DNA from: Escherichia coli
GTDB lineage: Bacteria > Pseudomonadota > Gammaproteobacteria > Enterobacterales > Enterobacteriaceae
Strand: one strand, 5' to 3'
DNA: 64,000 bases
Assembly (NCBI RefSeq): GCF_011045215.1
Contig: NZ_CP049201.1
The notes under the pieces are model-generated. The model was not told where the DNA came from. It made no database searches and worked only from the letters and a program-made list of their open reading frames with translations. Shown here one piece after another: positions 7,752-59,651 of this stretch. The number at the start of each line of letters is the position of its first letter. The first letter of the stretch is position 1. The position numbers and the translations under genes are program-made.

Positions 7752-8960
7752 ATGTCCCGCGTATCGCAGGCGAGGAACCTGGGTAAATATTTCCTGCTCA
7801 TCGATAATATGCTGGTCGTGCTGGGGTTCTTTGTTGTCTTCCCGCTGATCTCTATCCGCTTCGTTGATCAAATGGGCTGGGCCGCCGTCATGGTCGGTAT
7901 TGCTCTCGGTCTACGCCAGTTTATTCAGCAAGGTCTGGGTATTTTCGGCGGCGCAATTGCCGACCGCTTTGGTGCCAAACCGATGATTGTTACCGGTATG
8001 CTGATGCGCGCCGCCGGATTCGCCACAATGGGTATCGCCCACGAACCGTGGCTATTGTGGTTTTCATGCCTGCTCTCGGGACTCGGCGGCACGTTGTTTG
8101 ATCCGCCGCGTTCGGCGCTGGTGGTGAAACTAATCCGTCCACAACAACGTGGTCGTTTTTTCTCGCTGTTGATGATGCAGGACAGTGCCGGTGCGGTCAT
8201 TGGCGCATTGTTGGGGAGCTGGCTGTTGCAATACGACTTTCGCCTGGTCTGCGCCACAGGGGCCGTTTTGTTTGTGCTGTGTGCGGCGTTCAATGCGTGG
8301 TTGTTACCGGCATGGAAACTCTCCACCGTACGCACGCCCGTTCGCGAAGGCATGACCCGCGTGATGCGTGACAAGCGTTTTGTCACCTATGTCCTGACGC
8401 TGGCGGGTTACTACATGCTGGCTGTACAAGTGATGCTGATGCTGCCAATTATGGTCAACGACGTGGCTGGCGCACCCTCTGCCGTTAAATGGATGTATGC
8501 CATTGAAGCGTGTCTGTCGTTAACGTTGCTCTACCCTATCGCCCGCTGGAGTGAAAAGCATTTTCGTCTGGAACACCGGTTGATGGCTGGGCTGTTGATA
8601 ATGTCATTAAGCATGATGCCGGTGGGCATGGTCAGCGGCCTGCAACAACTTTTCACCCTGATTTGTCTGTTTTATATCGGGTCGATCATTGCCGAGCCTG
8701 CGCGTGAAACCTTAAGTGCTTCGCTGGCGGACGCAAGAGCTCGCGGCAGCTATATGGGGTTTAGCCGTCTGGGTCTGGCGATTGGCGGCGCTATTGGTTA
8801 TATCGGTGGTGGCTGGCTGTTTGACCTGGGCAAATCGGCGCACCAGCCAGAGCTTCCGTGGATGATGCTGGGCATTATTGGCATCTTCACTTTCCTTGCG
8901 CTGGGTTGGCAGTTTAGCCAGAAACGTGCCGCGCGTCGTTTGCTGGAACGCGACGCCTGA
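7752..8960 (+). CDS. mdtH: MFS multidrug efflux transporter MdtH
   Basis: ORF track 7722..8960; ATG at 7752 gives 402 aa [27 protein letters not shown]... Confidence 0.92.
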
Positions 8961-9023
8961 TTTGATACTCCCCCCTGACTCCTCCATACTGAAAGTGAAC
9001 TGACAGCCAAATGGAGGAGTCAC

Positions 9024-9671
9024 GTGAAGCTATACATTTACGATCACTGCCCTTACTGCCTCAAAGCCCGCATGATTTTCGGCCTGAAAAATATCCCCGT
9101 CGAATTACATGTTCTGCTCAACGACGACGCAGAAACACCCACCCGGATGGTCGGTCAAAAACAGGTTCCCATTCTGCAAAAAGATGACAGCCGCTATATG
9201 CCAGAAAGCATGGATATCGTTCACTATGTCGATAAACTCGACGGCAAACCGTTACTGACCGGCAAACGTTCCCCTGCAATTGAAGAGTGGCTGCGCAAGG
9301 TCAATGGCTACGCCAACAAACTGCTGTTGCCGCGTTTTGCCAAATCGGCATTTGATGAGTTTTCTACTCCCGCCGCGCGCAAATATTTCGTCGACAAGAA
9401 AGAGGCCAGCGCGGGTAATTTTGCCGACCTGCTGGCCCACTCTGACGGTCTGATTAAGAATATCAGCGATGATTTACGTGCGCTGGACAAACTGATCGTC
9501 AAACCGAACGCCGTGAATGGCGAACTTTCGGAAGATGATATTCAGCTATTTCCACTACTGCGTAATCTGACGCTGGTAGCCGGAATCAACTGGCCAAGCC
9601 GCGTTGCTGATTACCGCGATAATATGGCGAAACAGACACAAATCAATTTGTTATCCTCAATGGCGATTTAA
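9024..9671 (+). CDS. grxB: glutaredoxin 2 GrxB
   Basis: ORF track 215 aa, MKLYIYDHCPYCLKARMIFGLKNIPVELHV... with CPYC active site; apparent GTG start preceded by GGAGG. Confidence 0.93.
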   Translation: MKLYIYDHCPYCLKARMIFGLKNIPVELHVLLNDDAETPTRMVGQKQVPILQKDDSRYMPESMDIVHYVDKLDGKPLLTGKRSPAIEEWLRKVNGYANKLLLPRFAKSAFDEFSTPAARKYFVDKKEASAGNFADLLAHSDGLIKNISDDLRALDKLIVKPNAVNGELSEDDIQLFPLLRNLTLVAGINWPSRVADYRDNMAKQTQINLLSSMAI

Positions 9672-9804
9672 TCCTGACCCGCCGCGGCAGCCTGTATTCG
9701 CGGGTTGCCGCCGTTTTCAGTTTTTTCTGCTGGCGAGTTTATCGCTGGTGACACATGCTGCGTTGTGTCAGGATATTGACGCAGATTTCATGTCGAGGAC
9801 TACC

Positions 9805-10365
9805 ATGAACAAGTTTTTATTTGCCGCTGCATTGATCGTCAGTGGCCTGCTCGTTGGCTGTAATCAACTCACCCAATACACCATCACCGAACAAGAAATT
9901 AACCAGTCGCTTGCGAAACATAATAATTTCTCAAAAGATATCGGTTTACCCGGCGTGGCTGACGCCCATATTGTTCTGACAAACTTGACCAGCCAAATTG
10001 GTCGCGAAGAGCCGAATAAGGTTACCCTAACCGGAGACGCCAATCTGGACATGAACTCCCTGTTCGGTAGTCAGAAAGCGACCATGAAACTGAAGCTGAA
10101 AGCGCTGCCCGTGTTTGATAAAGAAAAAGGTGCGATCTTCCTGAAAGAGATGGAAGTGGTCGATGCGACGGTACAACCGGAAAAAATGCAAACGGTGATG
10201 CAAACGTTGCTTCCCTATTTGAACCAGGCATTACGCAATTACTTTAACCAGCAACCTGCTTACGTCCTGCGCGAAGATGGCAGTCAGGGCGAAGCAATGG
10301 CGAAAAAACTGGCGAAAGGCATTGAAGTGAAGCCAGGCGAAATTGTCATTCCGTTTACGGATTAA
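9805..10365 (+). CDS. yceB: lipoprotein YceB
   Basis: ORF track 9604..10365; ATG at 9805 gives 186 aa MNKFLFAAALIVSGLLVGC... (lipobox LVGC); the upstream part of the ORF overlaps the grxB 3' end. Confidence 0.9.
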   Translation: MNKFLFAAALIVSGLLVGCNQLTQYTITEQEINQSLAKHNNFSKDIGLPGVADAHIVLTNLTSQIGREEPNKVTLTGDANLDMNSLFGSQKATMKLKLKALPVFDKEKGAIFLKEMEVVDATVQPEKMQTVMQTLLPYLNQALRNYFNQQPAYVLREDGSQGEAMAKKLAKGIEVKPGEIVIPFTD

Positions 10366-10470
10366 TGACGAGGGCGCATTCGCGCCCTTTATTTTTCGTG
10401 CAAAGGAAAACGTTTCCGCTTATCCTTTGTGTCCGGCAAAAACATCCCTTCAGCCGGAGCATAGAGATTA

Positions 10471-11517
10471 ATGACTGCACCATCCCAGGTATTAAAGATC
10501 CGCCGCCCAGACGACTGGCACCTTCACCTCCGCGATGGCGACATGTTAAAAACTGTCGTGCCGTATACCAGCGAAATTTATGGACGGGCTATTGTAATGC
10601 CCAATCTGGCTCCGCCCGTGACCACTGTTGAGGCTGCCGTGGCGTATCGCCAGCGTATTCTTGATGCCGTACCTGCCGGGCACGATTTCACCCCATTGAT
10701 GACCTGTTATTTAACAGATTCGCTGGATCCTAATGAGCTGGAGCGCGGATTTAATGAAGGCGTGTTCACCGCTGCAAAACTTTACCCGGCAAACGCAACC
10801 ACTAACTCCAGCCACGGCGTGACGTCAATTGACGCAATCATGCCGGTACTTGAGCGCATGGAAAAAATCGGTATGCCGCTACTGGTGCATGGTGAAGTGA
10901 CACATGCAGATATCGACATTTTTGATCGTGAAGCGCGCTTTATAGAAAGCGTGATGGAACCTCTGCGCCAGCGCCTGACTGCGCTGAAAGTCGTTTTTGA
11001 GCACATCACCACCAAAGATGCTGCCGACTATGTCCGTGACGGAAATGAACGGCTGGCTGCCACCATCACTCCGCAGCATCTGATGTTTAACCGCAACCAT
11101 ATGCTGGTTGGTGGCGTGCGTCCGCACCTGTATTGTTTACCCATCCTCAAACGCAATATTCACCAACAGGCATTGCGTGAACTGGTCGCCAGCGGTTTTA
11201 ATCGAGTATTCCTCGGTACGGATTCTGCGCCACATGCACGTCATCGCAAAGAGAGCAGTTGCGGCTGCGCGGGCTGCTTCAACGCCCCAACCGCGCTGGG
11301 CAGTTACGCTACCGTCTTTGAAGAGATGAATGCTCTGCAGCACTTTGAAGCATTCTGTTCTGTAAACGGCCCGCAGTTCTATGGCTTGCCGGTCAACGAC
11401 ACATTCATCGAACTGGTACGTGAAGAGCAACAGGTTGCTGAAAGCATCGCACTGACTGATGACACCCTGGTGCCATTCCTCGCCGGGGAAACGGTACGCT
11501 GGTCCGTTAAACAATAA
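10471..11517 (+). CDS. pyrC: dihydroorotase PyrC
   Basis: ORF track 348 aa, [29 protein letters not shown]... Confidence 0.95.
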
Positions 11518-11551
11518 AAATCGTAGCTTCCTGTTGTCATTAGGTTATTTT

Positions 11552-11571
11552 ACCTGTATAAATAACCAGTA
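11552..11571 (+). promoter_or_regulatory. LexA (SOS) box upstream of dinI
   Basis: ACCTGTATAAATAACCAGTA read about 20 nt upstream of dinI ATG; fits CTGT-N8-ACAG-type LexA operator with one deviation (CCAG). Confidence 0.7.
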
Positions 11572-11590
11572 TATTCAACAGGGGGCTATT

Positions 11591-11836
11591 ATGCGAATTG
11601 AAGTCACCATAGCGAAAACTTCTCCATTGCCAGCTGGGGCTATTGACGCCCTGGCTGGCGAACTTTCCCGCCGTATTCAGTATGCGTTTCCTGATAATGA
11701 AGGCCACGTATCGGTACGTTATGCCGCAGCGAATAATTTATCGGTTATTGGCGCAACAAAAGAAGATAAACAGCGCATTAGCGAAATTCTCCAGGAAACG
11801 TGGGAAAGCGCCGATGACTGGTTTGTCAGCGAATAA
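11591..11836 (+). CDS. dinI: DNA damage-inducible protein DinI
   Basis: in-frame ATG at 11591 inside ORF 11459..11836 gives 81 aa MRIEVTIAKTSPLPAGAIDALAGELSRRIQYAFPDNEGHVSVRY... Confidence 0.93.
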   Translation: MRIEVTIAKTSPLPAGAIDALAGELSRRIQYAFPDNEGHVSVRYAAANNLSVIGATKEDKQRISEILQETWESADDWFVSE

Positions 11837-50309: not shown

Positions 50310-52748
50310 ATGGCTATCAAAAAAACCGAACTCTATTCTTCCCTGTGGGCAAGCTGCGACGAACTGCGTGGCGGGATGGACGCCAGCCAGTACAAAGACT
50401 ATGTACTGACCCTGCTGTTTATGAAGTACGTTTCCGATAAGTATAAAGGCGATCCTTACGGGATGATCGTGATACCCAAAGGAGCCAGCTTTGACGATAT
50501 GGTTGCGCTGAAAAATGACAAAGAGATCGGCGACAAAATCAACAAAATCATCCACAAGCTGGCGGAAGAGAACGGCCTGAAGGGCGTCATCGACGAAGCC
50601 GACTTTAACGACGAAGATAAGCTCGGCAAAGGCAAGGAAATGATTGACCGCCTGAGCAAGCTTGTCGGTATCTTTGAAGGGTTAAATCTCTCCAGCAACC
50701 GGGCCGAAGGCGACGATCTGCTGGGCGATGCCTATGAATATCTGATGCGTCACTTCGCAACCGAATCCGGTAAGAGTAAAGGGCAGTTTTACACTCCAGC
50801 GGAGGTGTCACGTATTCTGGCGAAGGTGATTGGTATTACTCCCGATACTCCGCAAGATGCAACGGTTTATGACCCAACCTGTGGCTCTGGTTCGCTGCTG
50901 TTGAAAGTGAATGATGAAGCCCGGCGCGGACTGTCGATTTTCGGCCAGGAGATGGATAACGCTACCAGTGCGCTGGCGCGGATGAACATGATTCTGCATA
51001 ACAATGCCACCGCGAAAATCTGGCAGGGCAATACGCTGAGCGATCCGCAGTGGAAAGAGGCGAACGGCAAACTGAAAGCCTTCGATTTTGCCGTGGCGAA
51101 CCCGCCTTTTTCCAATAAAAACTGGACCAACGGGCTGACGCCGAAAAAAGATCCGTTTGAACGCTTCGGCTGGGGTATTCCGCCGGAAAAAAACGGCGAT
51201 TATGCTTTTTTGTTGCATATCATTAAAAGCCTGAAAAGTACCGGCAAAGGCGCGGTGATCCTGCCCCACGGCGTACTGTTTCGCGGTAACGCCGAAGCGA
51301 ATATCCGTGAAAATCTAATCAAGCAGGGCTATATCAAAGGCGTTATTGGTTTGCCAGCCAACCTGTTTTACGGCACCGGCATCCCGGCGTGCATCATTGT
51401 GATTGATAAAGAGCACGCCCACAGCCGCAAAGGCATTTTTATGATCGACGCCAGCCGGGGCTTTATCAAAGATGGCAACAAGAACCGCCTGCGTAGCCGA
51501 GATATTCACCGCATTGTGGACGTGTTCAACCATCAGCGAACGGTACCTGGCTACAGCCGGATGGTGCCCTCCAGCGAGATCGCCGGAAATGATTACAACC
51601 TGAATATTCCTCGCTATATCGAGAGCGGCGAGCCGGAAGATTTACACGATCTGACCGCGCACTTACAGGGCGGTATTCCGGCACGCGATGTGGATGCTTT
51701 GCAAGATTACTGGCGGGTATTCCCTGCCCTGCGCAACGTGCTGTTTGCTGACGACCGTCCCGGTTACTGTCGGGCGCAGGTGAACGCGCAACAGGTGAAA
51801 CCGACCATTCTGGCGCATCAGGAGTTTAAGGATTTTGCCACCCGCAGCCTGCTACCGTTTAAAGCGTGGGTGAAAGAGGCAAGTCTGGAAGAGATTCGCA
51901 AAGGTGATAAACCCAAAGCGCTAATCCACGATATCAGCGAAATGCTATTGGCGCAGTACGCCAACAGTGAGTTGCTGAACAAATACAGCGTGTACCAGAT
52001 CCTGATGGATTACTGGACTGATGTCATGCAAGACGATGTGTATGCGATTATGCAGGATGGCTGGCAAGCCGCCGCGCAAATCCGCGAGCTTCAGCCGGTG
52101 AAAGGCAAAGATGGCAAAAACATCTGGAAAGAAACGCACGATTTCGAGTTTACCAAACGGCGCTACAAGGCCGATGTGCTGCCCCGTTCGCTGGTGGAAA
52201 TTCGCTGTTTCCCGGAACTGCTGGATGCGCTGAACCGCGCGCAGGAGCGCAGTGAAGAAGCCAGTCGTCAGCTAGTGGAATTCATCGAGGAGCAGGCAGG
52301 TGAAGAGGATCTGCTGGCCGAGGCGAAGAACGATAAAGATAAGGTGACGCAAAAGCTGGTGAATGCCCGTCTAGCACAGTTAAAGAAAACCACTGCCGGC
52401 CCAGATGAGCTGGCAGTGCTGAACCGCTGCCTGGCGCTAATTAAGGCCGAAGCCAGTGCGAAAAAAGCGCTGAAAGCCGCACAAGAAGCGCTGGATCGGG
52501 CGGTGTTTAAACATTATCCCACGCTGGATGAAGCAGCGATTAAAACGCTGGTAGTGCAGGATAAGTGGCTGGCAACGTTGCAGGCAGGGATCAAGGCGGA
52601 GATTGAGCGTATTACCCAGCAACTGGCGTCGCGCGTAAAGGAGCTGGAAGAGCGTTATGCTGAACCGTTGCTAGCGCTTGAAGCCTCCGTTGAGGCGTTG
52701 AGCGAGAAAGTGGCCGGGCATTTGCGGGCGATGGGGCTGGAGTGGTGA
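50310..52748 (+). CDS. hsdM: type I restriction-modification system methyltransferase subunit HsdM (long form)
   Basis: ORF track 812 aa; AdoMet motif DPTCGSGSLL and catalytic motif VANPPFS read directly; stop overlaps hsdS start. Confidence 0.9.
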   Translation: MAIKKTELYSSLWASCDELRGGMDASQYKDYVLTLLFMKYVSDKYKGDPYGMIVIPKGASFDDMVALKNDKEIGDKINKIIHKLAEENGLKGVIDEADFNDEDKLGKGKEMIDRLSKLVGIFEGLNLSSNRAEGDDLLGDAYEYLMRHFATESGKSKGQFYTPAEVSRILAKVIGITPDTPQDATVYDPTCGSGSLLLKVNDEARRGLSIFGQEMDNATSALARMNMILHNNATAKIWQGNTLSDPQWKEANGKLKAFDFAVANPPFSNKNWTNGLTPKKDPFERFGWGIPPEKNGDYAFLLHIIKSLKSTGKGAVILPHGVLFRGNAEANIRENLIKQGYIKGVIGLPANLFYGTGIPACIIVIDKEHAHSRKGIFMIDASRGFIKDGNKNRLRSRDIHRIVDVFNHQRTVPGYSRMVPSSEIAGNDYNLNIPRYIESGEPEDLHDLTAHLQGGIPARDVDALQDYWRVFPALRNVLFADDRPGYCRAQVNAQQVKPTILAHQEFKDFATRSLLPFKAWVKEASLEEIRKGDKPKALIHDISEMLLAQYANSELLNKYSVYQILMDYWTDVMQDDVYAIMQDGWQAAAQIRELQPVKGKDGKNIWKETHDFEFTKRRYKADVLPRSLVEIRCFPELLDALNRAQERSEEASRQLVEFIEEQAGEEDLLAEAKNDKDKVTQKLVNARLAQLKKTTAGPDELAVLNRCLALIKAEASAKKALKAAQEALDRAVFKHYPTLDEAAIKTLVVQDKWLATLQAGIKAEIERITQQLASRVKELEERYAEPLLALEASVEALSEKVAGHLRAMGLEW

Positions 52749-54088
52749 TGGTGGATTTAATGGTGAATGAGCAACGGTCGAGTACGGCGGGGAAAGATGT
52801 GCCTGCGGGGTATAAACTGACTGAGGTGGGCGTGATTCCTGAGGATTGGGATTGCGTACCATTTGGTAATCTGTTTAAAACAAACACAAAGAAAAAAAAA
52901 GTCAGCGATTATGAGCTAGTTTCATTTATTGGGATGCAGGATGTTAGTGAAGATGCACAATTAAAAAATAATACTCAACTTCCTTTTAAAGAAGTTAAAA
53001 GTGGTTTTACTTACTTTGAAAAAGGGGATGTTTTATTAGCTAAAATAACCCCTTGTTTTGAAAATGGAAAAGGATGTCATACCGCTGATTTACCTACTAA
53101 TGTAGGTTTTGGGAGTACGGAATTTCATGTATTAAGGGAAAATGAAGACTCCGATTCTCGCTTCATCTATTTTTGGACAACTGATAAAAAATTCAGAGCA
53201 TCACTGGAATCTGAAATGGTGGGAAGTGCGGGACACCGTCGTGTGCCGCTAGTTGCTATAGAAAAATATTTGATTCCATGTCCCCCAAATTTGCAAGAGC
53301 AAAGTGCTATTGCTGATTCATTATCTGATATTAATAATTTTATTCTAGCTCTAGAAAAGCTTATCGTTAAAAAACAAGCCATTAAAACCGCTACTATGCA
53401 GCAACTACTGACGGGTAAAACCCGTTTGCCACAGTTTGCGTTACGCAAAGATGGCTCTGCTAAGGGATATAAAAAGAGCGAGTTGGGGGCGATTCCTGAA
53501 GATTGGGTAGTCACAAGCATTGGACAATTTACTGACTGCTGTGCTGGTGGAACTCCGAGTACTAAAATTTCAGCATATTGGGGAGGAACTCATCCTTGGA
53601 TGAGTTCCGGCGAATTACACTTAAAACAAGTGTATGCTGTAGCCGATTATATAACCGACGAAGGGCTTGTTAACTCCAGTACAAAGTATGTGCCTAAAAA
53701 TTCTGTATTAGTCGGATTGGCAGGACAAGGAAAGACTCGAGGGACTGTAGCAATTAATCGCATTGAATTATGTACTAATCAGTCTATTGCTGCGATTTTC
53801 CCCAGCAAACATCATTCCACAGAATTCCTGTTCTATAACCTCGACAGTCGTTATGAGGAACTGAGAAGTTTATCTACTGGTGATGGGGGGCGTGGTGGGT
53901 TGAATCTTACTATTATCAGGAAATTACATCTTGCATTTCCGCCAAAAGAAGAACAAGCCGCCATCGCCGCCATCCTCTCCGATATGGACAAGGAAATCCA
54001 GATCCTGCAACAGCGTCTGGACAAAACCCGCCAGCTTAAGCAAGGGATGATGCAGGAACTGTTAACCGGGAAAATCCGCTTAATATAG
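52748..54088 (+). CDS. hsdS: type I restriction-modification system specificity subunit HsdS
   Basis: ORF track 52742..54088 (448 aa); ATG at 52748 overlaps the hsdM TGA; two target-recognition-like halves with AT-rich codon usage. Confidence 0.88.
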   Translation: MVDLMVNEQRSSTAGKDVPAGYKLTEVGVIPEDWDCVPFGNLFKTNTKKKKVSDYELVSFIGMQDVSEDAQLKNNTQLPFKEVKSGFTYFEKGDVLLAKITPCFENGKGCHTADLPTNVGFGSTEFHVLRENEDSDSRFIYFWTTDKKFRASLESEMVGSAGHRRVPLVAIEKYLIPCPPNLQEQSAIADSLSDINNFILALEKLIVKKQAIKTATMQQLLTGKTRLPQFALRKDGSAKGYKKSELGAIPEDWVVTSIGQFTDCCAGGTPSTKISAYWGGTHPWMSSGELHLKQVYAVADYITDEGLVNSSTKYVPKNSVLVGLAGQGKTRGTVAINRIELCTNQSIAAIFPSKHHSTEFLFYNLDSRYEELRSLSTGDGGRGGLNLTIIRKLHLAFPPKEEQAAIAAILSDMDKEIQILQQRLDKTRQLKQGMMQELLTGKIRLI

Positions 54089-54100
54089 AAGGGAAAGCAC

Positions 54101-54757
54101 ATGGCTTATGATTACAGCGCCAGCCTCAACCCGCAAAAAGCTCTGATCTGGCGTATCGTCCATCGGGACAATATCCCGTGGATTCTGGATAACGGGCTGC
54201 ACTGCGGCAACAGTCTGGTGCAGGCGGAAAACTGGATCAATATCGGCAACCCGGAGCTGATCGGCAAGCGTGCCGGGCATCCGGTACCTGTCGGAACGGG
54301 CGGGACACTGCATGACTATGTGCCGTTTTATTTTACCCCCTTCTCGCCAATGCTGATGAACATCCACAGCGGGCGCGGCGGCATTAAGCAACGCCCCAAT
54401 GAGGAGATCGTTATTCTGGTCAGCAACTTGCGGAACGTGGCAGCACACGACGTGCCCTTCGTGTTTACCGACAGCCATGCTTACTATAACTGGACCAACT
54501 ACTACACCAGTCTGAATAGTCTGGACCAGATCGACTGGCCCATTTTGCAGGCACGGGACTTTCGCCGCGATCCAGACGATCCGGCTAAATTTGAACGCTA
54601 TCAGGCAGAGGCGCTAATCTGGCAACACTGCCCGATCTCTCTGCTGGATGGGATAATTTGTTACAGCGAAGAGGTCAGGTTACAATTAGAGCAATGGCTG
54701 TTTCAGCGTAATCTAACAATGTCCGTTCACACACGGGCTGGATGGTACTTCTCATGA
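54101..54757 (+). CDS. darT: DarT, DNA ADP-ribosyltransferase toxin (DUF4433)
   Basis: ORF track 218 aa; motifs [18 protein letters not shown] and C-terminal GWY(F) line up with recalled DarT; starts 13 nt after hsdS stop. Confidence 0.88.
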
Positions 54758-55821
54758 TCACATATACACAAGGCAATTTACTGGACGCACCGGTGGAAGC
54801 TCTGGTGAATACGGTTAATACCGTCGGTGTCATGGGGAAAGGCATCGCGTTGATGTTTAAAGAGCGCTTCCCCGAAAATATGAAAGTCTATGCCCTCGCT
54901 TGCAAACAAAAGCAGGTGATCACCGGCAAAATGTTCATTACCGAAACCGGGGAACTGATGGGACCGCGCTGGATTGTTAATTTTCCGACCAAACAGCACT
55001 GGCGCGCTGATTCCCGCATGGAGTGGATTGAAGATGGCTTGCAGGACTTACGCCGCTTTTTGATTGAAGAGAACGTGCAGTCCATCGCCATTCCACCACT
55101 GGGCGCAGGCAACGGTGGTTTGAACTGGCCGGACGTTCGGGCGCAGATTGAATCTGCCCTTGGCGACCTTCAGGACGTTGATATCCTGATTTACCAACCG
55201 ACTGAAAAATACCAGAACGTTGCCAAAAGCACTGGCGTAAAAAAGCTCACTCCCGCCAGAGCCGCCATCGCTGAACTGGTGCGTCGCTACTGGGTATTGG
55301 GGATGGAGTGCAGCCTACTGGAAATCCAGAAACTGGCCTGGCTGTTACAACGCGCCATTGAGCAGCATCAACAGGACGATATCCTCAAACTGCGGTTTGA
55401 AGCTCACTATTATGGCCCCTATGCGCCCAATCTGAACCATCTGCTTAATGCGCTGGACGGCACCTATCTAAAAGCCGAGAAACGCATCCCGGACAGCCAA
55501 CCGCTGGATGTGATCTGGTTTAACGATCAAAAAAAAGAACACGTTAATGCGTATCTGAACAACGAAGCCAGAGAGTGGCTACCTGCGCTGGAGCAGGTCA
55601 GCCAGTTAATTGACGGCTTTGAATCGCCGTTTGGTCTGGAGTTGCTGGCAACCGTAGACTGGTTGCTGAGCCGTGGCGAATGTCAACCAACGCTGGATTC
55701 CGTTAAGGAAGGACTGCACCAGTGGCCTGCGGGCGAACGCTGGGCCAGCCGTAAGTTGAGGCTGTTTGATAATAATAATCTGCAATTTGCCATTAACCGC
55801 GTAATGGAGTTCCATTGCTGA
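54754..55821 (+). CDS. darG: DarG, macrodomain antitoxin (DNA ADP-ribosyl glycohydrolase)
   Basis: ORF track 54742..55821; ATG at 54754 overlaps darT stop (ATGA); N-terminal macrodomain signature [39 protein letters not shown]; about 200-aa C-terminal domain. Confidence 0.88.
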
Positions 55822-55839: not shown

Positions 55840-58800
55840 TTGAGTACCGTGGGCCAGCGCGAACGCGCCACACAGCAGCGTCTGATTCAGTTTTTTGTTG
55901 AAGATTTAGGATACCGCCATCTGAGTCACCGCACCGGGTACACCGGGAACAGCAACATCGACACTAATATACTGAGCGCGTGGCTAAAACGGCGCGGCGT
56001 TAATGATACGTTGATCACCCGGGCGTTGCGGCAACTGGATTCCGCCGCCGCCCTGGGCGAAGGCAAAAAACTCTATTACGCCAATAAAGAGGTCTATCGC
56101 CTGCTGCGTTACGGCGTGAAAGACAAAGAAGGTGCAGGCGAGCAGAACCAAACCGTGTGGCTGATTGACTGGGCCAACCCACAAGCCAATGATTTCGCCA
56201 TCGCCGATGAGGTGACGGTCAAAGGCGAGTACTGCAAGCGCCCGGATCTGGTGCTGTACGTTAACGGCATTGCGCTGGGCGTGATTGAACTTAAGCGTTC
56301 GTCAGTGCACGTCAGCGAAGGTATCCGGCAGAATCTCGATAATCAAAAGAAAACCTTTATCCGCGATTTCTTCACCACTATGCAGTTAGTGATGGCAGGC
56401 AACGATACGCAGGGCCTGCGCTACGGCACCATCGAAACCCCGGAAAAATACTATCTGGAGTGGAAAGAAGATAATCCAGGCGACTATACACATAAACTCG
56501 ACTTTCATTTAAGTCGTCTGTGTAGCAAATCCAGGCTGTTGGATATCGTCCATAATTACATTGTCTTTGATGTCGGGGTGAAAAAACTCTGCCGCCATAA
56601 TCAGTTCTTCGGCGTCGAGGCGGCTAAGCAACATATTGCCCGTCGTGAAGGCGGTATTATCTGGCACACACAGGGATCGGGTAAAAGCCTGACGATGGTC
56701 TGGCTGGCGAAGTGGATCCGTGAAAATGTGCCAAACTCCCGCGTGTTGATTGTGACTGACCGCACCGAACTGGATGAACAGATCGAAAGCGTGTTTATGG
56801 GCGTGAATGAAGATATTTATCGCACCTCCAGCGGCAACGATCTTATCGCAACGCTCAATCATCCTAACCCGTGGCTTATTTGCTCGCTGGTGCATAAATT
56901 TGGTTGTCGCAGCGAAGCTGAAGACAATGCGGCTACCGACGCCTTTATCACCGAATTACAGCAGTCCCTGACGAAAACATTCCGCGCCAAAGGCGATCTG
57001 TTTGTTTTTGTGGACGAGTGCCACCGCACACAATCCGGCAAGCTGCATAACGCCATGACTGCCATTCTGCCGGACGCCCTGTTTATCGGTTTTACCGGCA
57101 CACCGCTGATGAAGAAAGATAAGAAGAAGTCGGTTGAGGTGTTCGGCCCTTATATCCATACCTATAAATTTGATGAAGCGGTGGCCGACGGTGTGGTGCT
57201 GGATCTGCGCTACGAGGCGCGCGATATTGACCAGTATCTGACATCAGAGAAAAAGGTCGATGACTGGTTTGAAGCCAAGACTCGCGGTTTGTCGAATTTA
57301 GCCAGGACCCAGCTTAAGCAAAAGTGGGGATCAATGCAGAAGCTGCTCTCCAGCAAGTCGCGGCTGGAGCAGATCGTTAACGACATTTTGCTGGATATGG
57401 ATACCCGTCCACGCCTGATGGACGGGCGCGGCAACGCCATGCTGGTATGCAGCAGTATCTATCAAGCCTGCAAGGTTTACGAGATGTTCAGCCAGACCGA
57501 GCTGGCAGGAAAAGTAGCGATTGTGACCAGCTATCGCCCCGATGCCGCCAGCATCAAAGGCGAAGAAACGGGCGAAGGGTTAACGGAGAAACTCTCTAAA
57601 CACGCCACCTATCGTAAAATGTTGGCTGACTATTTTGAACAAAGTGAAGAGAAGGCCGCCGCACGCATTACCGAGTTCGAGCGGGAAGTGAAACAACGTT
57701 TTATTGAAGAGCCGGGGCAAATGCGCCTGCTTATCGTGGTGGACAAGCTGTTGACTGGCTTTGACGCGCCGTCCGCCACCTATCTCTACATTGATAAAAC
57801 CATGACCGACCATACGCTGTTTCAGGCGATTTGTCGGGTGAACCGGCTGGACGGTGAGGATAAAGAGTATGGCTATATTATCGATTATAAAGATCTGTTC
57901 CGTTCGCTGGATAAAGCGATTACCGATTACACCACGGGCGCGTTTGATGATTACGATCGGGACGATGTGGCCGGGTTGCTGAAAGACAGGCTGGAGCAGG
58001 CGCAACTGGATCTCGACAGCGCGCTGGAGATGGTTCGCAGCTTATGTGAGCCCGTCAAAACCCCGCGCAGCCTGCAGGACTATCAGCACTATTTTTGCGG
58101 TAAATCAGGAGAGAATCAGACTTCGTTAAACGAAAAAGAGGCGCTGCGCCTGACATTTTACCAGTGCGTCGCCCGTCTGCTACGCGCTTATGCCAGCATC
58201 GCCAATGAAATGCCGGAAGCAGGCTACACTGCCGAAGAGGTAGAGAGCATTCGCGCCGAAGTCGCTGAATTCGAAAAACTGCGCTATGAGATTAAGCTGA
58301 CCAGCGGCGATCTTCTGGATATGAAGCGCTTTGAACCCGCTATGCGTCATTTACTGGATATGTATGTTCGCGCCGATGGTAGCGAAGTGCTGATGGATTT
58401 TGAAGAGTTAAGTCTGATTGAACTGATTGTCGAGAAAGGCTTGGCGGCGACCGTCGCCCTGCCGGATGATATCCGTAATAATCAGGATGCGATGGCGGAA
58501 ACCATCGAAAACAACGTGCGCAAAACCATCGTGGATGAAAACCCGGTTAACCCAAAATACTATGGACGCATGTCGCAGCTGCTGGATGAACTGATTACCC
58601 TTCGCCGACAAAATGCGCTCAATTATCAGCAGTATCTGGAACGTATCCGCGATTTGTGTAAACAGGTCATCCGCCCGGAGCAAACCGCCGGAGCGTGCTA
58701 CCCTGCCACCATGGATACACAAGCAAAGCGCGCCTTCTATGACAACTTCGGCCACGACGAGGTACTGGCGACCCGCATAGATACGACAATTCGCTATACC

Positions 58801-58935
58801 AAAAGGGCAGAGTGGATTGGCGATCGTTTTAAAGAACGGGAAATTGCCAACGCATTACGTGAAGAGACCGCCAGCTATAATATTGATATTGATGAGGTGA
58901 TAGCGCTTGCCCGTCAGCAGAAGGAATATCACTGA
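55840..58935 (+). CDS. hsdR: type I restriction enzyme endonuclease/translocase subunit HsdR
   Basis: ORF track 1031 aa; nuclease-like DLVLYVNGIALGVIELK and helicase DECH (FVFVDECHRTQ) motifs read; starts 19 nt after darG. Confidence 0.92.
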   Translation: MSTVGQRERATQQRLIQFFVEDLGYRHLSHRTGYTGNSNIDTNILSAWLKRRGVNDTLITRALRQLDSAAALGEGKKLYYANKEVYRLLRYGVKDKEGAGEQNQTVWLIDWANPQANDFAIADEVTVKGEYCKRPDLVLYVNGIALGVIELKRSSVHVSEGIRQNLDNQKKTFIRDFFTTMQLVMAGNDTQGLRYGTIETPEKYYLEWKEDNPGDYTHKLDFHLSRLCSKSRLLDIVHNYIVFDVGVKKLCRHNQFFGVEAAKQHIARREGGIIWHTQGSGKSLTMVWLAKWIRENVPNSRVLIVTDRTELDEQIESVFMGVNEDIYRTSSGNDLIATLNHPNPWLICSLVHKFGCRSEAEDNAATDAFITELQQSLTKTFRAKGDLFVFVDECHRTQSGKLHNAMTAILPDALFIGFTGTPLMKKDKKKSVEVFGPYIHTYKFDEAVADGVVLDLRYEARDIDQYLTSEKKVDDWFEAKTRGLSNLARTQLKQKWGSMQKLLSSKSRLEQIVNDILLDMDTRPRLMDGRGNAMLVCSSIYQACKVYEMFSQTELAGKVAIVTSYRPDAASIKGEETGEGLTEKLSKHATYRKMLADYFEQSEEKAAARITEFEREVKQRFIEEPGQMRLLIVVDKLLTGFDAPSATYLYIDKTMTDHTLFQAICRVNRLDGEDKEYGYIIDYKDLFRSLDKAITDYTTGAFDDYDRDDVAGLLKDRLEQAQLDLDSALEMVRSLCEPVKTPRSLQDYQHYFCGKSGENQTSLNEKEALRLTFYQCVARLLRAYASIANEMPEAGYTAEEVESIRAEVAEFEKLRYEIKLTSGDLLDMKRFEPAMRHLLDMYVRADGSEVLMDFEELSLIELIVEKGLAATVALPDDIRNNQDAMAETIENNVRKTIVDENPVNPKYYGRMSQLLDELITLRRQNALNYQQYLERIRDLCKQVIRPEQTAGACYPATMDTQAKRAFYDNFGHDEVLATRIDTTIRYTKRAEWIGDRFKEREIANALREETASYNIDIDEVIALARQQKEYH

Positions 58936-59651
58936 TGCCAATCATGCAAATAGGCTCGTTACACTTGCTGGTCAACCGTAAGGCGATTAAGAATCTGCAT
59001 ATCAGCGTGCTGCCGCCTGATGGCAAAGTCCGCGTTTCAGCGCCGGAACATATGACGGAGACGGCGATTCGTATGGCGGTTGCTTCACGCTTTCGCTGGA
59101 TCAGAAAACAGCAGCAGGATTTCGCCAGACAGCCTCGTCAATCAGAGAGGGAAATGGTCAGCGGAGAGTGCCACTATCTTTGGGGCCGAAGATATCGCCT
59201 ACTTGTGATTGAGCGTCACGGGCGTCACGAAGTAAAAGTTGCGGGAAATAATAAGCTCCAGCTTTATGTTCAACCGGGAACCCGTGATGAAAATAAGGCA
59301 TTGGCGTTAAGTGAATTTTATCGACATGAACTAAAACAGCAGGTGGCTAAGCTTCTACCTGAATGGCAAGACCGAATCGGTGTTCCCCTAACATTCTGGG
59401 GCATCAAAAAGATGAAAACCTTTTGGGGCACCTGTAACACTACAACAAAACGAATCTGGCTCAATCTGGAGCTAATTAAGAAGCCGCCGGAGTGTCTGGA
59501 GTATATTCTGGTGCATGAACTGGTTCATCTTCTGGAACGTCACCATAATGCTCGCTTCCGGTTGCATATGGATCGGTTTATTCCTGACTGGCGTGAGCGT
59601 CGGGATTTGTTAAATAATATGCCGTTAGCGTTTGAGGCATGGGAGTATTGA
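58935..59651 (+). CDS. DUF45/YgjP-like zinc metallopeptidase-domain protein
   Basis: ORF track 238 aa; HEXXH motif ILVHELVHLLERHH; ATG overlaps the hsdR stop by 1 nt. Confidence 0.8.
   Translation: MPIMQIGSLHLLVNRKAIKNLHISVLPPDGKVRVSAPEHMTETAIRMAVASRFRWIRKQQQDFARQPRQSEREMVSGECHYLWGRRYRLLVIERHGRHEVKVAGNNKLQLYVQPGTRDENKALALSEFYRHELKQQVAKLLPEWQDRIGVPLTFWGIKKMKTFWGTCNTTTKRIWLNLELIKKPPECLEYILVHELVHLLERHHNARFRLHMDRFIPDWRERRDLLNNMPLAFEAWEY

Follow-up and report, generated by a model that had tools for sequence, protein, structure and literature searches.

The window analysed in this work is a 64-kb stretch of Escherichia coli DNA containing a defence island, all of whose genes lie on the + strand. 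On the basis of Pfam matches and the annotation of relatives, the order of the genes is rptR, hsdM, hsdS, darT, darG, hsdR and an M48 peptidase gene. The island opens with an ORF (50031..50270) that encodes an rptR-like HTH repressor (Pfam HTH_73, E = 1.7e-28; annotated in relatives), and is followed by hsdM (50310..52748; 812 aa; Pfam HsdM_N and N6_Mtase; annotated in relatives) and hsdS (52748..54088). Downstream of hsdS lie darT, which encodes a DNA ADP-ribosyltransferase toxin (54101..54757; Pfam DarT, E = 2.3e-53; RefSeq annotation in relatives), darG, which encodes a macrodomain antitoxin (54754..55821; Pfam Macro; start according to the RefSeq annotation of relatives), hsdR, which encodes the type I restriction subunit (55840..58935; Pfam HSDR_N, SWI2_SNF2 and T1R_D3-like), and, as the last ORF, a gene for an M48/YgjP-like metallopeptidase (58935..59651; Pfam YgjP-like; annotation). 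A longer darG ORF starts at 54742.

The seven gene families and their order are the same as those of the RRDM island of EPEC E2348/69, an anti-phage island of seven ORFs (RptR, a type I R-M system, DarTG2 and M48), in which a promoter upstream of rptR drives transcription and RptR represses it (PMC12255303); the island in the window is therefore assigned to the same type. Islands of the RRDM type are found in approximately 248 of the 5,426 RefSeq complete E. coli genomes. A simple scan of the + strand found no promoter-like site inside hsdS.

The hsdS gene encodes a type I specificity subunit of 446 aa, whose RefSeq name in near-identical E. coli relatives is "restriction endonuclease subunit S". 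The protein contains two Methylase_S stretches (PF01420, E = 7.8e-36), corresponding to two target-recognition domains (TRDs) with conserved regions between them, and the HsdS structures 1YF2 (M. jannaschii) and 7BST align with its C-terminal half. The gene adjoins hsdM through the sequence TGATG at 52746-52750, in which the hsdM stop codon TGA (52746-52748) and the hsdS ATG share one A, an overlap in keeping with translational coupling, and hsdR is present in the same locus. Codons were counted from the ATG at 52748, which is the RefSeq start in the near-identical relatives. From composition, Pfam and the structure match, TRD1 extends over ~52871-53330, and is followed on the same (+) strand by the central conserved region (~53331-53480) and TRD2 (~53481-53960).

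A previous sequence-only reading of this DNA had pointed out a run of nine A residues near codon 49 of hsdS. Both the run and its assignment to hsdS were confirmed, the former by a direct read of the + strand and the latter by the Methylase_S matches and the frame from the ATG at 52748. The run, AAAAAAAAA (52892..52900), constitutes codons 49-51 (AAA AAA AAA), and codon 48, just 5' of it, is AAG. These four codons, AAG AAA AAA AAA (52889..52900, + strand), contain 11 A's in 12 nt and are translated into KKKK in the residue context TNT-KKKK-VSD, a basic loop located at the start of TRD1.

The tract is the only A9/T9 run in the window, where the next A/T runs by length are two A8 runs; there is also one C9 run at 61136-61144. 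Dinucleotide shuffles predict 1.72 A9/T9 runs and contain at least one in 75 of 100 cases, so the presence of an A9 is unsurprising from composition alone. Measured against native E. coli genes, the tract is unusual: in-frame AAA-AAA-AAA was found in E. coli ORFs in a single case, 50-fold below expectation (Koutmou et al. 2015, PMC4363877). The tract is located ~20 nt past a step in G+C content: the conserved 5' end of hsdS has ~50%, whereas TRD1 has 35%.

The two halves of the gene have different closest relatives. A 701-nt segment at 53400-54100, which covers the central region, TRD2 and the 3' end of hsdS, shares 98% identity with its EPEC counterpart, and for an 80-nt segment of darG the identity to EPEC is 98.8%, whereas TRD1, which bears the A9, differs from that of EPEC and is of the NCTC86/CFSAN061761 type. 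Compared with CFSAN061761, the window has just two substitutions over 47745-53402 (~5.7 kb) and is divergent from 53403 onward. The window hsdS is a TRD1/TRD2 chimera. The TRD1 of the window is present in 70 RefSeq complete E. coli records, each of which is a separate assembly; its combination with the TRD2 of the window is absent from all 5,426 RefSeq complete genomes and is found in two metagenome contigs. The HsdS protein of the window has exact copies on 20 contigs in public data that bear the name E. coli.

Products of off-length alleles

We simulated the frameshifts caused by changes in tract length. With A8 or A11, translation stops at the TAG at 52917-52919 (+ strand), yielding products of 56 and 57 aa, respectively; with A10 or A7, it stops at the TGA at 52912-52914 (+ strand), yielding products of 55 and 54 aa. 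These products are also present in public data: peptide P0001 in a public record is the simulated 56-aa product of A8, and peptides P0002 and P0004, which end at the TGA, are present in public assemblies. The annotation of NCTC86 contains, at the position of the 5' part of hsdS, a CDS of 171 nt (WP_001340500.1). The earlier statement that a slip frameshifts the specificity subunit thus holds, and such alleles are on public record. A slip of one nucleotide in either direction would cost nearly the entire HsdS subunit.

Downstream of both stop codons there is an in-frame ATG (Met63, 52934..52936, + strand), from which annotation pipelines call an N-truncated HsdS of 382 aa in A8 alleles. This putative product would be devoid of the conserved N-terminal region and of the beginning of TRD1. 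The possibility that a functional HsdS begins at Met63 was considered but not adopted: the protein would be missing the first strands of TRD1, and no type I methylation is seen in NCTC86.

Tract length in genomes, metagenomes and homologues

To survey the tract, an 80-nt query centred on the A9 was compared with the RefSeq complete E. coli genomes. Among the 70 records with the window TRD1, 67 are identical to the query over all 80 nt, and the remaining three matches, all of them NCTC86, span 79 nt. When NCTC86 is set aside, the tract is A9 in every one of the 66 genomes, a result that spans two different TRD2 partners. For a control 80-nt query at an A8 run in darG, a substitution in the window places nearly all records in the identity band expected of an indel. 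Metagenomes were scanned for the exact flanking sequences separated by any 3-18 nt, and all seven contigs detected have A9; two of them carry the TRD1+TRD2 combination of the window and the others an alternative TRD2. The same exact-flank search gave no match among the genomes of a set with one representative per species.

In three of the four complete assemblies of NCTC86 (OZ489144.2, LR217818 and LT601384), the tract is A8 and hsdS is split or given as "frameshifted"; one of the three, LT601384, had its indels corrected with Illumina reads (PMC5382810). The fourth assembly, CP019778, has A9, and its hsdM lacks one nucleotide and carries a substitution; it was constructed from PacBio RSII data only (PMC5399273). 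Two further contigs of the NCTC86 lineage have A8: one (L044) shows no mismatch to LT601384 over 11,031 nt, and the other (L040) has one mismatch and a split hsdR. The split hsdR agrees with a nonsense SNP that has been described in this gene for derivatives of NCTC86; the mutations listed by Desroches 2018, which are those of squatter colonies only and do not cover the indels between isolates, include a nonsense SNP in the island hsdR. NCTC86 is a mismatch-repair-defective mutator with an in-frame deletion in mutL and a frameshift in mutT, and its isolates differ from each other by many indels (PMC5793043). The methylome published for it lists only Dam, Dcm, GGTACC and GAGCC, and no bipartite type I motif (PMC5399273), which is consistent with an inactive type I system.

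To look for off-length alleles more widely, the predicted truncated peptides were matched exactly in a collection of ~15 billion proteins. The A8 peptide was found on 31 contigs, with one further variant, the A7 peptide on 22 contigs, with one further variant, the A10 peptide on six contigs and the A11 peptide on one, which amounts to ~62 contigs in total. Full-length HsdS proteins sharing the N-terminus of the window are found on at least 1,337 contigs among the 15 of 189 cluster members listed, one of which is counted up to 1,000 contigs, and the off-length share is at most ~4% of contigs. The comparison of tract lengths across relatives, for which the sequence-only reading had named an invariant A9 as the outcome that would count against it, thus gave a near-invariant A9 in genomes and metagenomes and not a universal one, since A7, A8, A10 and A11 alleles exist in public data.

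We compared 25 off-length loci with a reference and listed every indel. Many of these loci have extra 1-nt deletions in other runs, namely, A7 runs at 49324, 50319 and 51187, a C4 run at 51264 and C5 runs at 47695 and 54330, and one locus has as many as 45 indels. In addition, loci of a single study or submission series repeat the same off-length value even though their hsdS alleles or their genomic contexts differ. For example, A7 is found in all of ERR15665874/5/905 and in two GCA_9744... assemblies, and A8 in both CP163780 and CP163792. Because many of the off-length contigs have other homopolymer deletions, sequencing error is a probable source for them; in our judgement, most of the A7 contigs and some of the A8 contigs are likely to be platform artefacts of this kind.

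Other off-length alleles look genuine, namely, those of the NCTC86 lineage and those of contigs L043, L030 and L031. The tract is the sole difference in 11,058 nt between L043 (A8) and the metagenome contig L008 (A9), and a second assembly, L035, agrees. L030, a MEGAHIT-style (k141) metagenome contig with A10, is otherwise identical to L009 (A9), and L031 also has A10, on a slightly different background. Since L043/L008 and L030/L009 differ at the tract alone, slippage appears to recur in lineages that are not known as mutators. Haplotyping of the hsdM-TRD1 region for counting independent slips gave 17 variable columns, and placed most loci in one haplotype; slippage relationships were judged by pairwise comparison of full loci. 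These comparisons suggest that several slippage events have occurred in nature, always producing predicted null alleles, and that these alleles stay rare.

With the TRD1 protein as a query, we found seven TRD1 homologues among species-representative genomes. Basic residues at the position of KKKK are kept in five of the seven, and the A9 run is present in none. The homologue of Xenorhabdus vietnamensis, with 87% aa identity, has KKKN encoded by AAG AAA AAA AAC (A8), from which the A9 of E. coli is reached by a single AAC-to-AAA change. The others are those of Enterobacter sp. MGH 24 (KKIN, A4), Vibrio lentus (RKKL, A7), Acinetobacter sp. Ver3 (SRKT, A5), Psychromonas antarctica (RKK, encoded by AGA AAG AAG), Zooshikella harenae (QRKSKR, no long A run) and a Bacteroidota MAG (no long A run). 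The feature that is maintained among these sequences is the protein loop and not the homopolymer.

Explanations for the A9 tract

In mutation-accumulation lines of repair-defective E. coli, a 9-bp A.T run acquired 7 indels in ~250,000 generations (PMC8510543). This corresponds to ~3e-5 per generation when repair is defective. In repair-proficient E. coli, the slip rate should be ~100-fold lower. The rate thus estimated for an A9 in a repair-proficient host is far under the 1e-3 range of G9 tracts in Campylobacter, which is the basis of the threshold of at least nine used for mononucleotide repeats (Atack et al. 2019, PMC7383803). The earlier caution that nine A's are only borderline for slippage was well placed. 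Among known systems, the tract is fitted best by the indel hot spots of repair-defective E. coli represented by the 9-bp A.T run of the glnS promoter (PMC8510543): the length is equal, the indels are of +/-1, their occurrence depends on repair, and we see no substantial difference.

We consider it very probable that the A9 is an incidental by-product of a Lys-rich loop, and that it is a mutational weak spot with no programmed role. The AT-rich TRD1 (35% G+C) would have been gained by recombination, and would encode KKKK largely with the common codon AAA. Replication slippage to A8 or A10 would then cut HsdS after 55-56 residues and, as HsdS is required for both, abolish methylation and restriction. 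In repair-proficient E. coli such slips would be rare, at an estimated ~1e-7 per generation, and, being rare and removed by selection, they would leave A9 predominant. Upon loss of mismatch repair, slips would become as frequent as ~3e-5 per generation and the gene would decay, as is seen in NCTC86. Both the slippage rates at the hsdS tract itself and purifying selection on the system are inferred here. Besides the length of nine, which reaches the threshold of Atack et al. 2019, and the locus pairs that differ at the tract alone, one further observation counts against an incidental origin: the ~50-fold depletion of in-frame AAA-AAA-AAA means that the persistence of the A9 needs explaining. 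Recent acquisition may explain it, to judge from the mere two substitutions that separate the window from CFSAN061761 across 47745-53402.

The sequence-only reading had suggested that slippage at the tract could switch restriction on and off. In its full form, a switch of this kind would make the tract a contingency locus: slipped-strand mispairing would toggle hsdS often enough to be adaptive, the activity of the entire type I R-M system would follow, and subpopulations could take up foreign DNA or alter their methylome. The tract does reach the length of at least nine proposed for mononucleotide repeats in hsd genes (PMC7383803), exactly, and lies within the ORF so that a change in length shifts the frame, as in predicted phase-variable hsd genes such as hsdS of N. 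gonorrhoeae NgoAV. The recorded A7, A8, A10 and A11 alleles, the three locus pairs that differ at the tract alone and the conflict among the NCTC86 assemblies (A8 in three, A9 in one) would also be expected of a switch. However, the lone A9 assembly is the PacBio-only one with another frameshift in hsdM, and the off-length contigs are few and enriched in error-laden assemblies. A contingency locus is expected to switch reversibly at ~1e-5 to 1e-2 per generation in a wild-type host; E. coli has MutSLH, and the slip rate expected for an A9 is ~3e-5 per generation even without repair. The length, moreover, rarely varies among relatives, and the DNA repeat is not conserved (A8, A4, A5, A7 and AAG AAG in five homologues). 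The position differs as well: in predicted phase-variable hsdS genes the repeats are always located between the TRDs (Atack et al. 2019, PMC7383803), and because of this location truncation leaves a functional half-subunit, so that the gene alternates between a full-length and a half-size form with changed specificity. In the window, the tract is poly-A, is located at or before the start of TRD1, and yields only a stub of 55-56 aa. With A9 near-fixed, a mutator as the exception, the homopolymer unconserved and the tract outside the inter-TRD region, we regard a switch as very unlikely. A variant of it, in which the switch depends on repair status, so that slips at ~3e-5 per generation silence HsdS upon loss of repair and may revert after repair is restored, seems to us more doubtful still.

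Another explanation is that the tract tunes expression, with polymerase slippage, ribosome sliding or -1 frameshifting diverting part of hsdS expression to the 55-56-aa peptide and thereby lowering HsdS with no change in the DNA. Many bacterial genomes avoid A/T runs of nine, an avoidance that has been ascribed to slippage in transcription (PMC1088944), insertion of 9-12 A's reduced the output of an E. coli reporter by 15-35% (PMC5263891), and out-of-frame stops lie near the tract, as they do at the A9 of dnaX in Thermus thermophilus and the A9/T9 sites of IS elements, which likewise have nine sense-strand A's (PMC1088944). Unlike these programmed sites, however, the tract gives no functional second product, since translation in the shifted frames ends 5-6 codons on, close to the N-terminus; its run is not conserved; and E. 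coli polymerase slips weakly on A, with no slippage detected on A runs shorter than eight and a rescue peak of only 5-10%, on T7/T8, with a bias to T runs (PMC6260861). Ribosome sliding yielded a robust truncated product on A11, but not much of one on A9 or A10 (PMC4363877). There is no stimulatory RNA structure in the 75 nt downstream (folding z = 0.39 versus shuffles), and no SD-like sequence was seen in the A-rich bases upstream of the tract. Programmed -1 frameshifting, considered separately, was rejected on the immediate stops and the lack of downstream structure. From the polymerase, ribosome, structure and conservation evidence, any effect on expression is probably small and unselected: a slight loss of HsdS yield is possible, and tuning as such is unlikely. 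The opposite extreme, in which tract length is constant in nature and every off-length allele stems from an error in sequencing or assembly, would account for the other homopolymer deletions in many off-length loci, for the recurrence of the same wrong length within a study across different alleles, and for the absence of any deviation among the 66 RefSeq complete genomes other than NCTC86. It is nevertheless extremely improbable, because three complete assemblies of NCTC86, including the Illumina-polished LT601384 (PMC5382810), show A8, as do two more contigs of the same lineage, because that strain is without a type I methylation motif, and because A10 occurs in k141 metagenome contigs with no other indel.

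A true switch would be a rare instance of homopolymer-driven phase variation in an E. coli defence island, and the evidence points the opposite way. If the tract did respond to repair status, hypermutation would be coupled to loss of a barrier against foreign DNA, and premature termination in hsdS might lower the expression of DarTG2 and HsdR downstream, a polarity that is possible because the single demonstrated promoter of the island is upstream of rptR. As an incidental weak spot, the tract has modest practical value. It is a site at which long-read and 454-type homopolymer miscalls occur and at which hsdS pseudogenisation appears to recur, so an hsdS annotated as frameshifted here should be checked against accurate reads before any biological conclusion is drawn. 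The A8 allele would also account for the missing type I methylation motif in Escherich's strain, NCTC86.

Composition of hsdS and hsdM

The hsdS gene (window 52748-54088) is chimeric, with a break in identity near position 53403. Its first target-recognition domain (TRD1) is of the NCTC86/CFSAN061761 type, to which it is identical, and its second (TRD2) shares 98% identity with that of EPEC E2348/69. This combination of TRD1 and TRD2 occurs in none of the 5,426 RefSeq complete E. coli genomes; it was found in two metagenome contigs (L010 and L007) and in 20 public contigs. In the adjoining hsdM (50310-52748), which encodes a protein of 812 aa, Pfam domains span only residues 10-441, and no Pfam family match was found for the C-terminal extension of about 370 aa.

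Other homopolymeric runs and the downstream genes

Among the A runs near the island, an A8 run in darG (55529-55536) ranks second in length. It is unchanged in all 25 loci in which the A run of hsdS (A9 in the window, 52892-52900) has another length, and in the four NCTC86 assemblies.

Beyond the defence island, an Ail/Lom-family outer-membrane protein gene (60259-60816, minus strand) is placed between the island and a pair of minus-strand ORFs. One of these encodes 298 aa with a PT-VENN pre-toxin domain (61312-62208), and its end overlaps by 4 nt a hydrophobic ORF of 77 aa (61082-61315); together they resemble an orphan CdiA-CT toxin and its immunity gene. The 77-aa ORF contains a C9 run (61136-61144), which on the minus strand is a G9 run encoding GGG; such a run is more prone to slippage than an A9 run.

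Possible lesions in hsdM and hsdR

At window position 51264 of hsdM (CTGCCCCAC), directly 3' of an adjoining GATC, a 1-nt deletion that shortens C4 to C3 and causes a frameshift is present in four loci (L005, L023, L024 and L026), namely the PacBio-only NCTC86 assembly CP019778 and three unrelated Logan contigs. The deletion is either a systematic long-read error beside the Dam site or a recurrent mutation.

In a contig of the NCTC86 lineage (L040, OEEZ01000112.1), hsdR (locus positions 8583-11668) is broken into parts of 719 aa and 301 aa. This break matches the hsdR nonsense SNP reported for NCTC86 squatter colonies (Table S6 of Desroches et al.), and it would be a second, independent lesion in the same island of this mutator strain.
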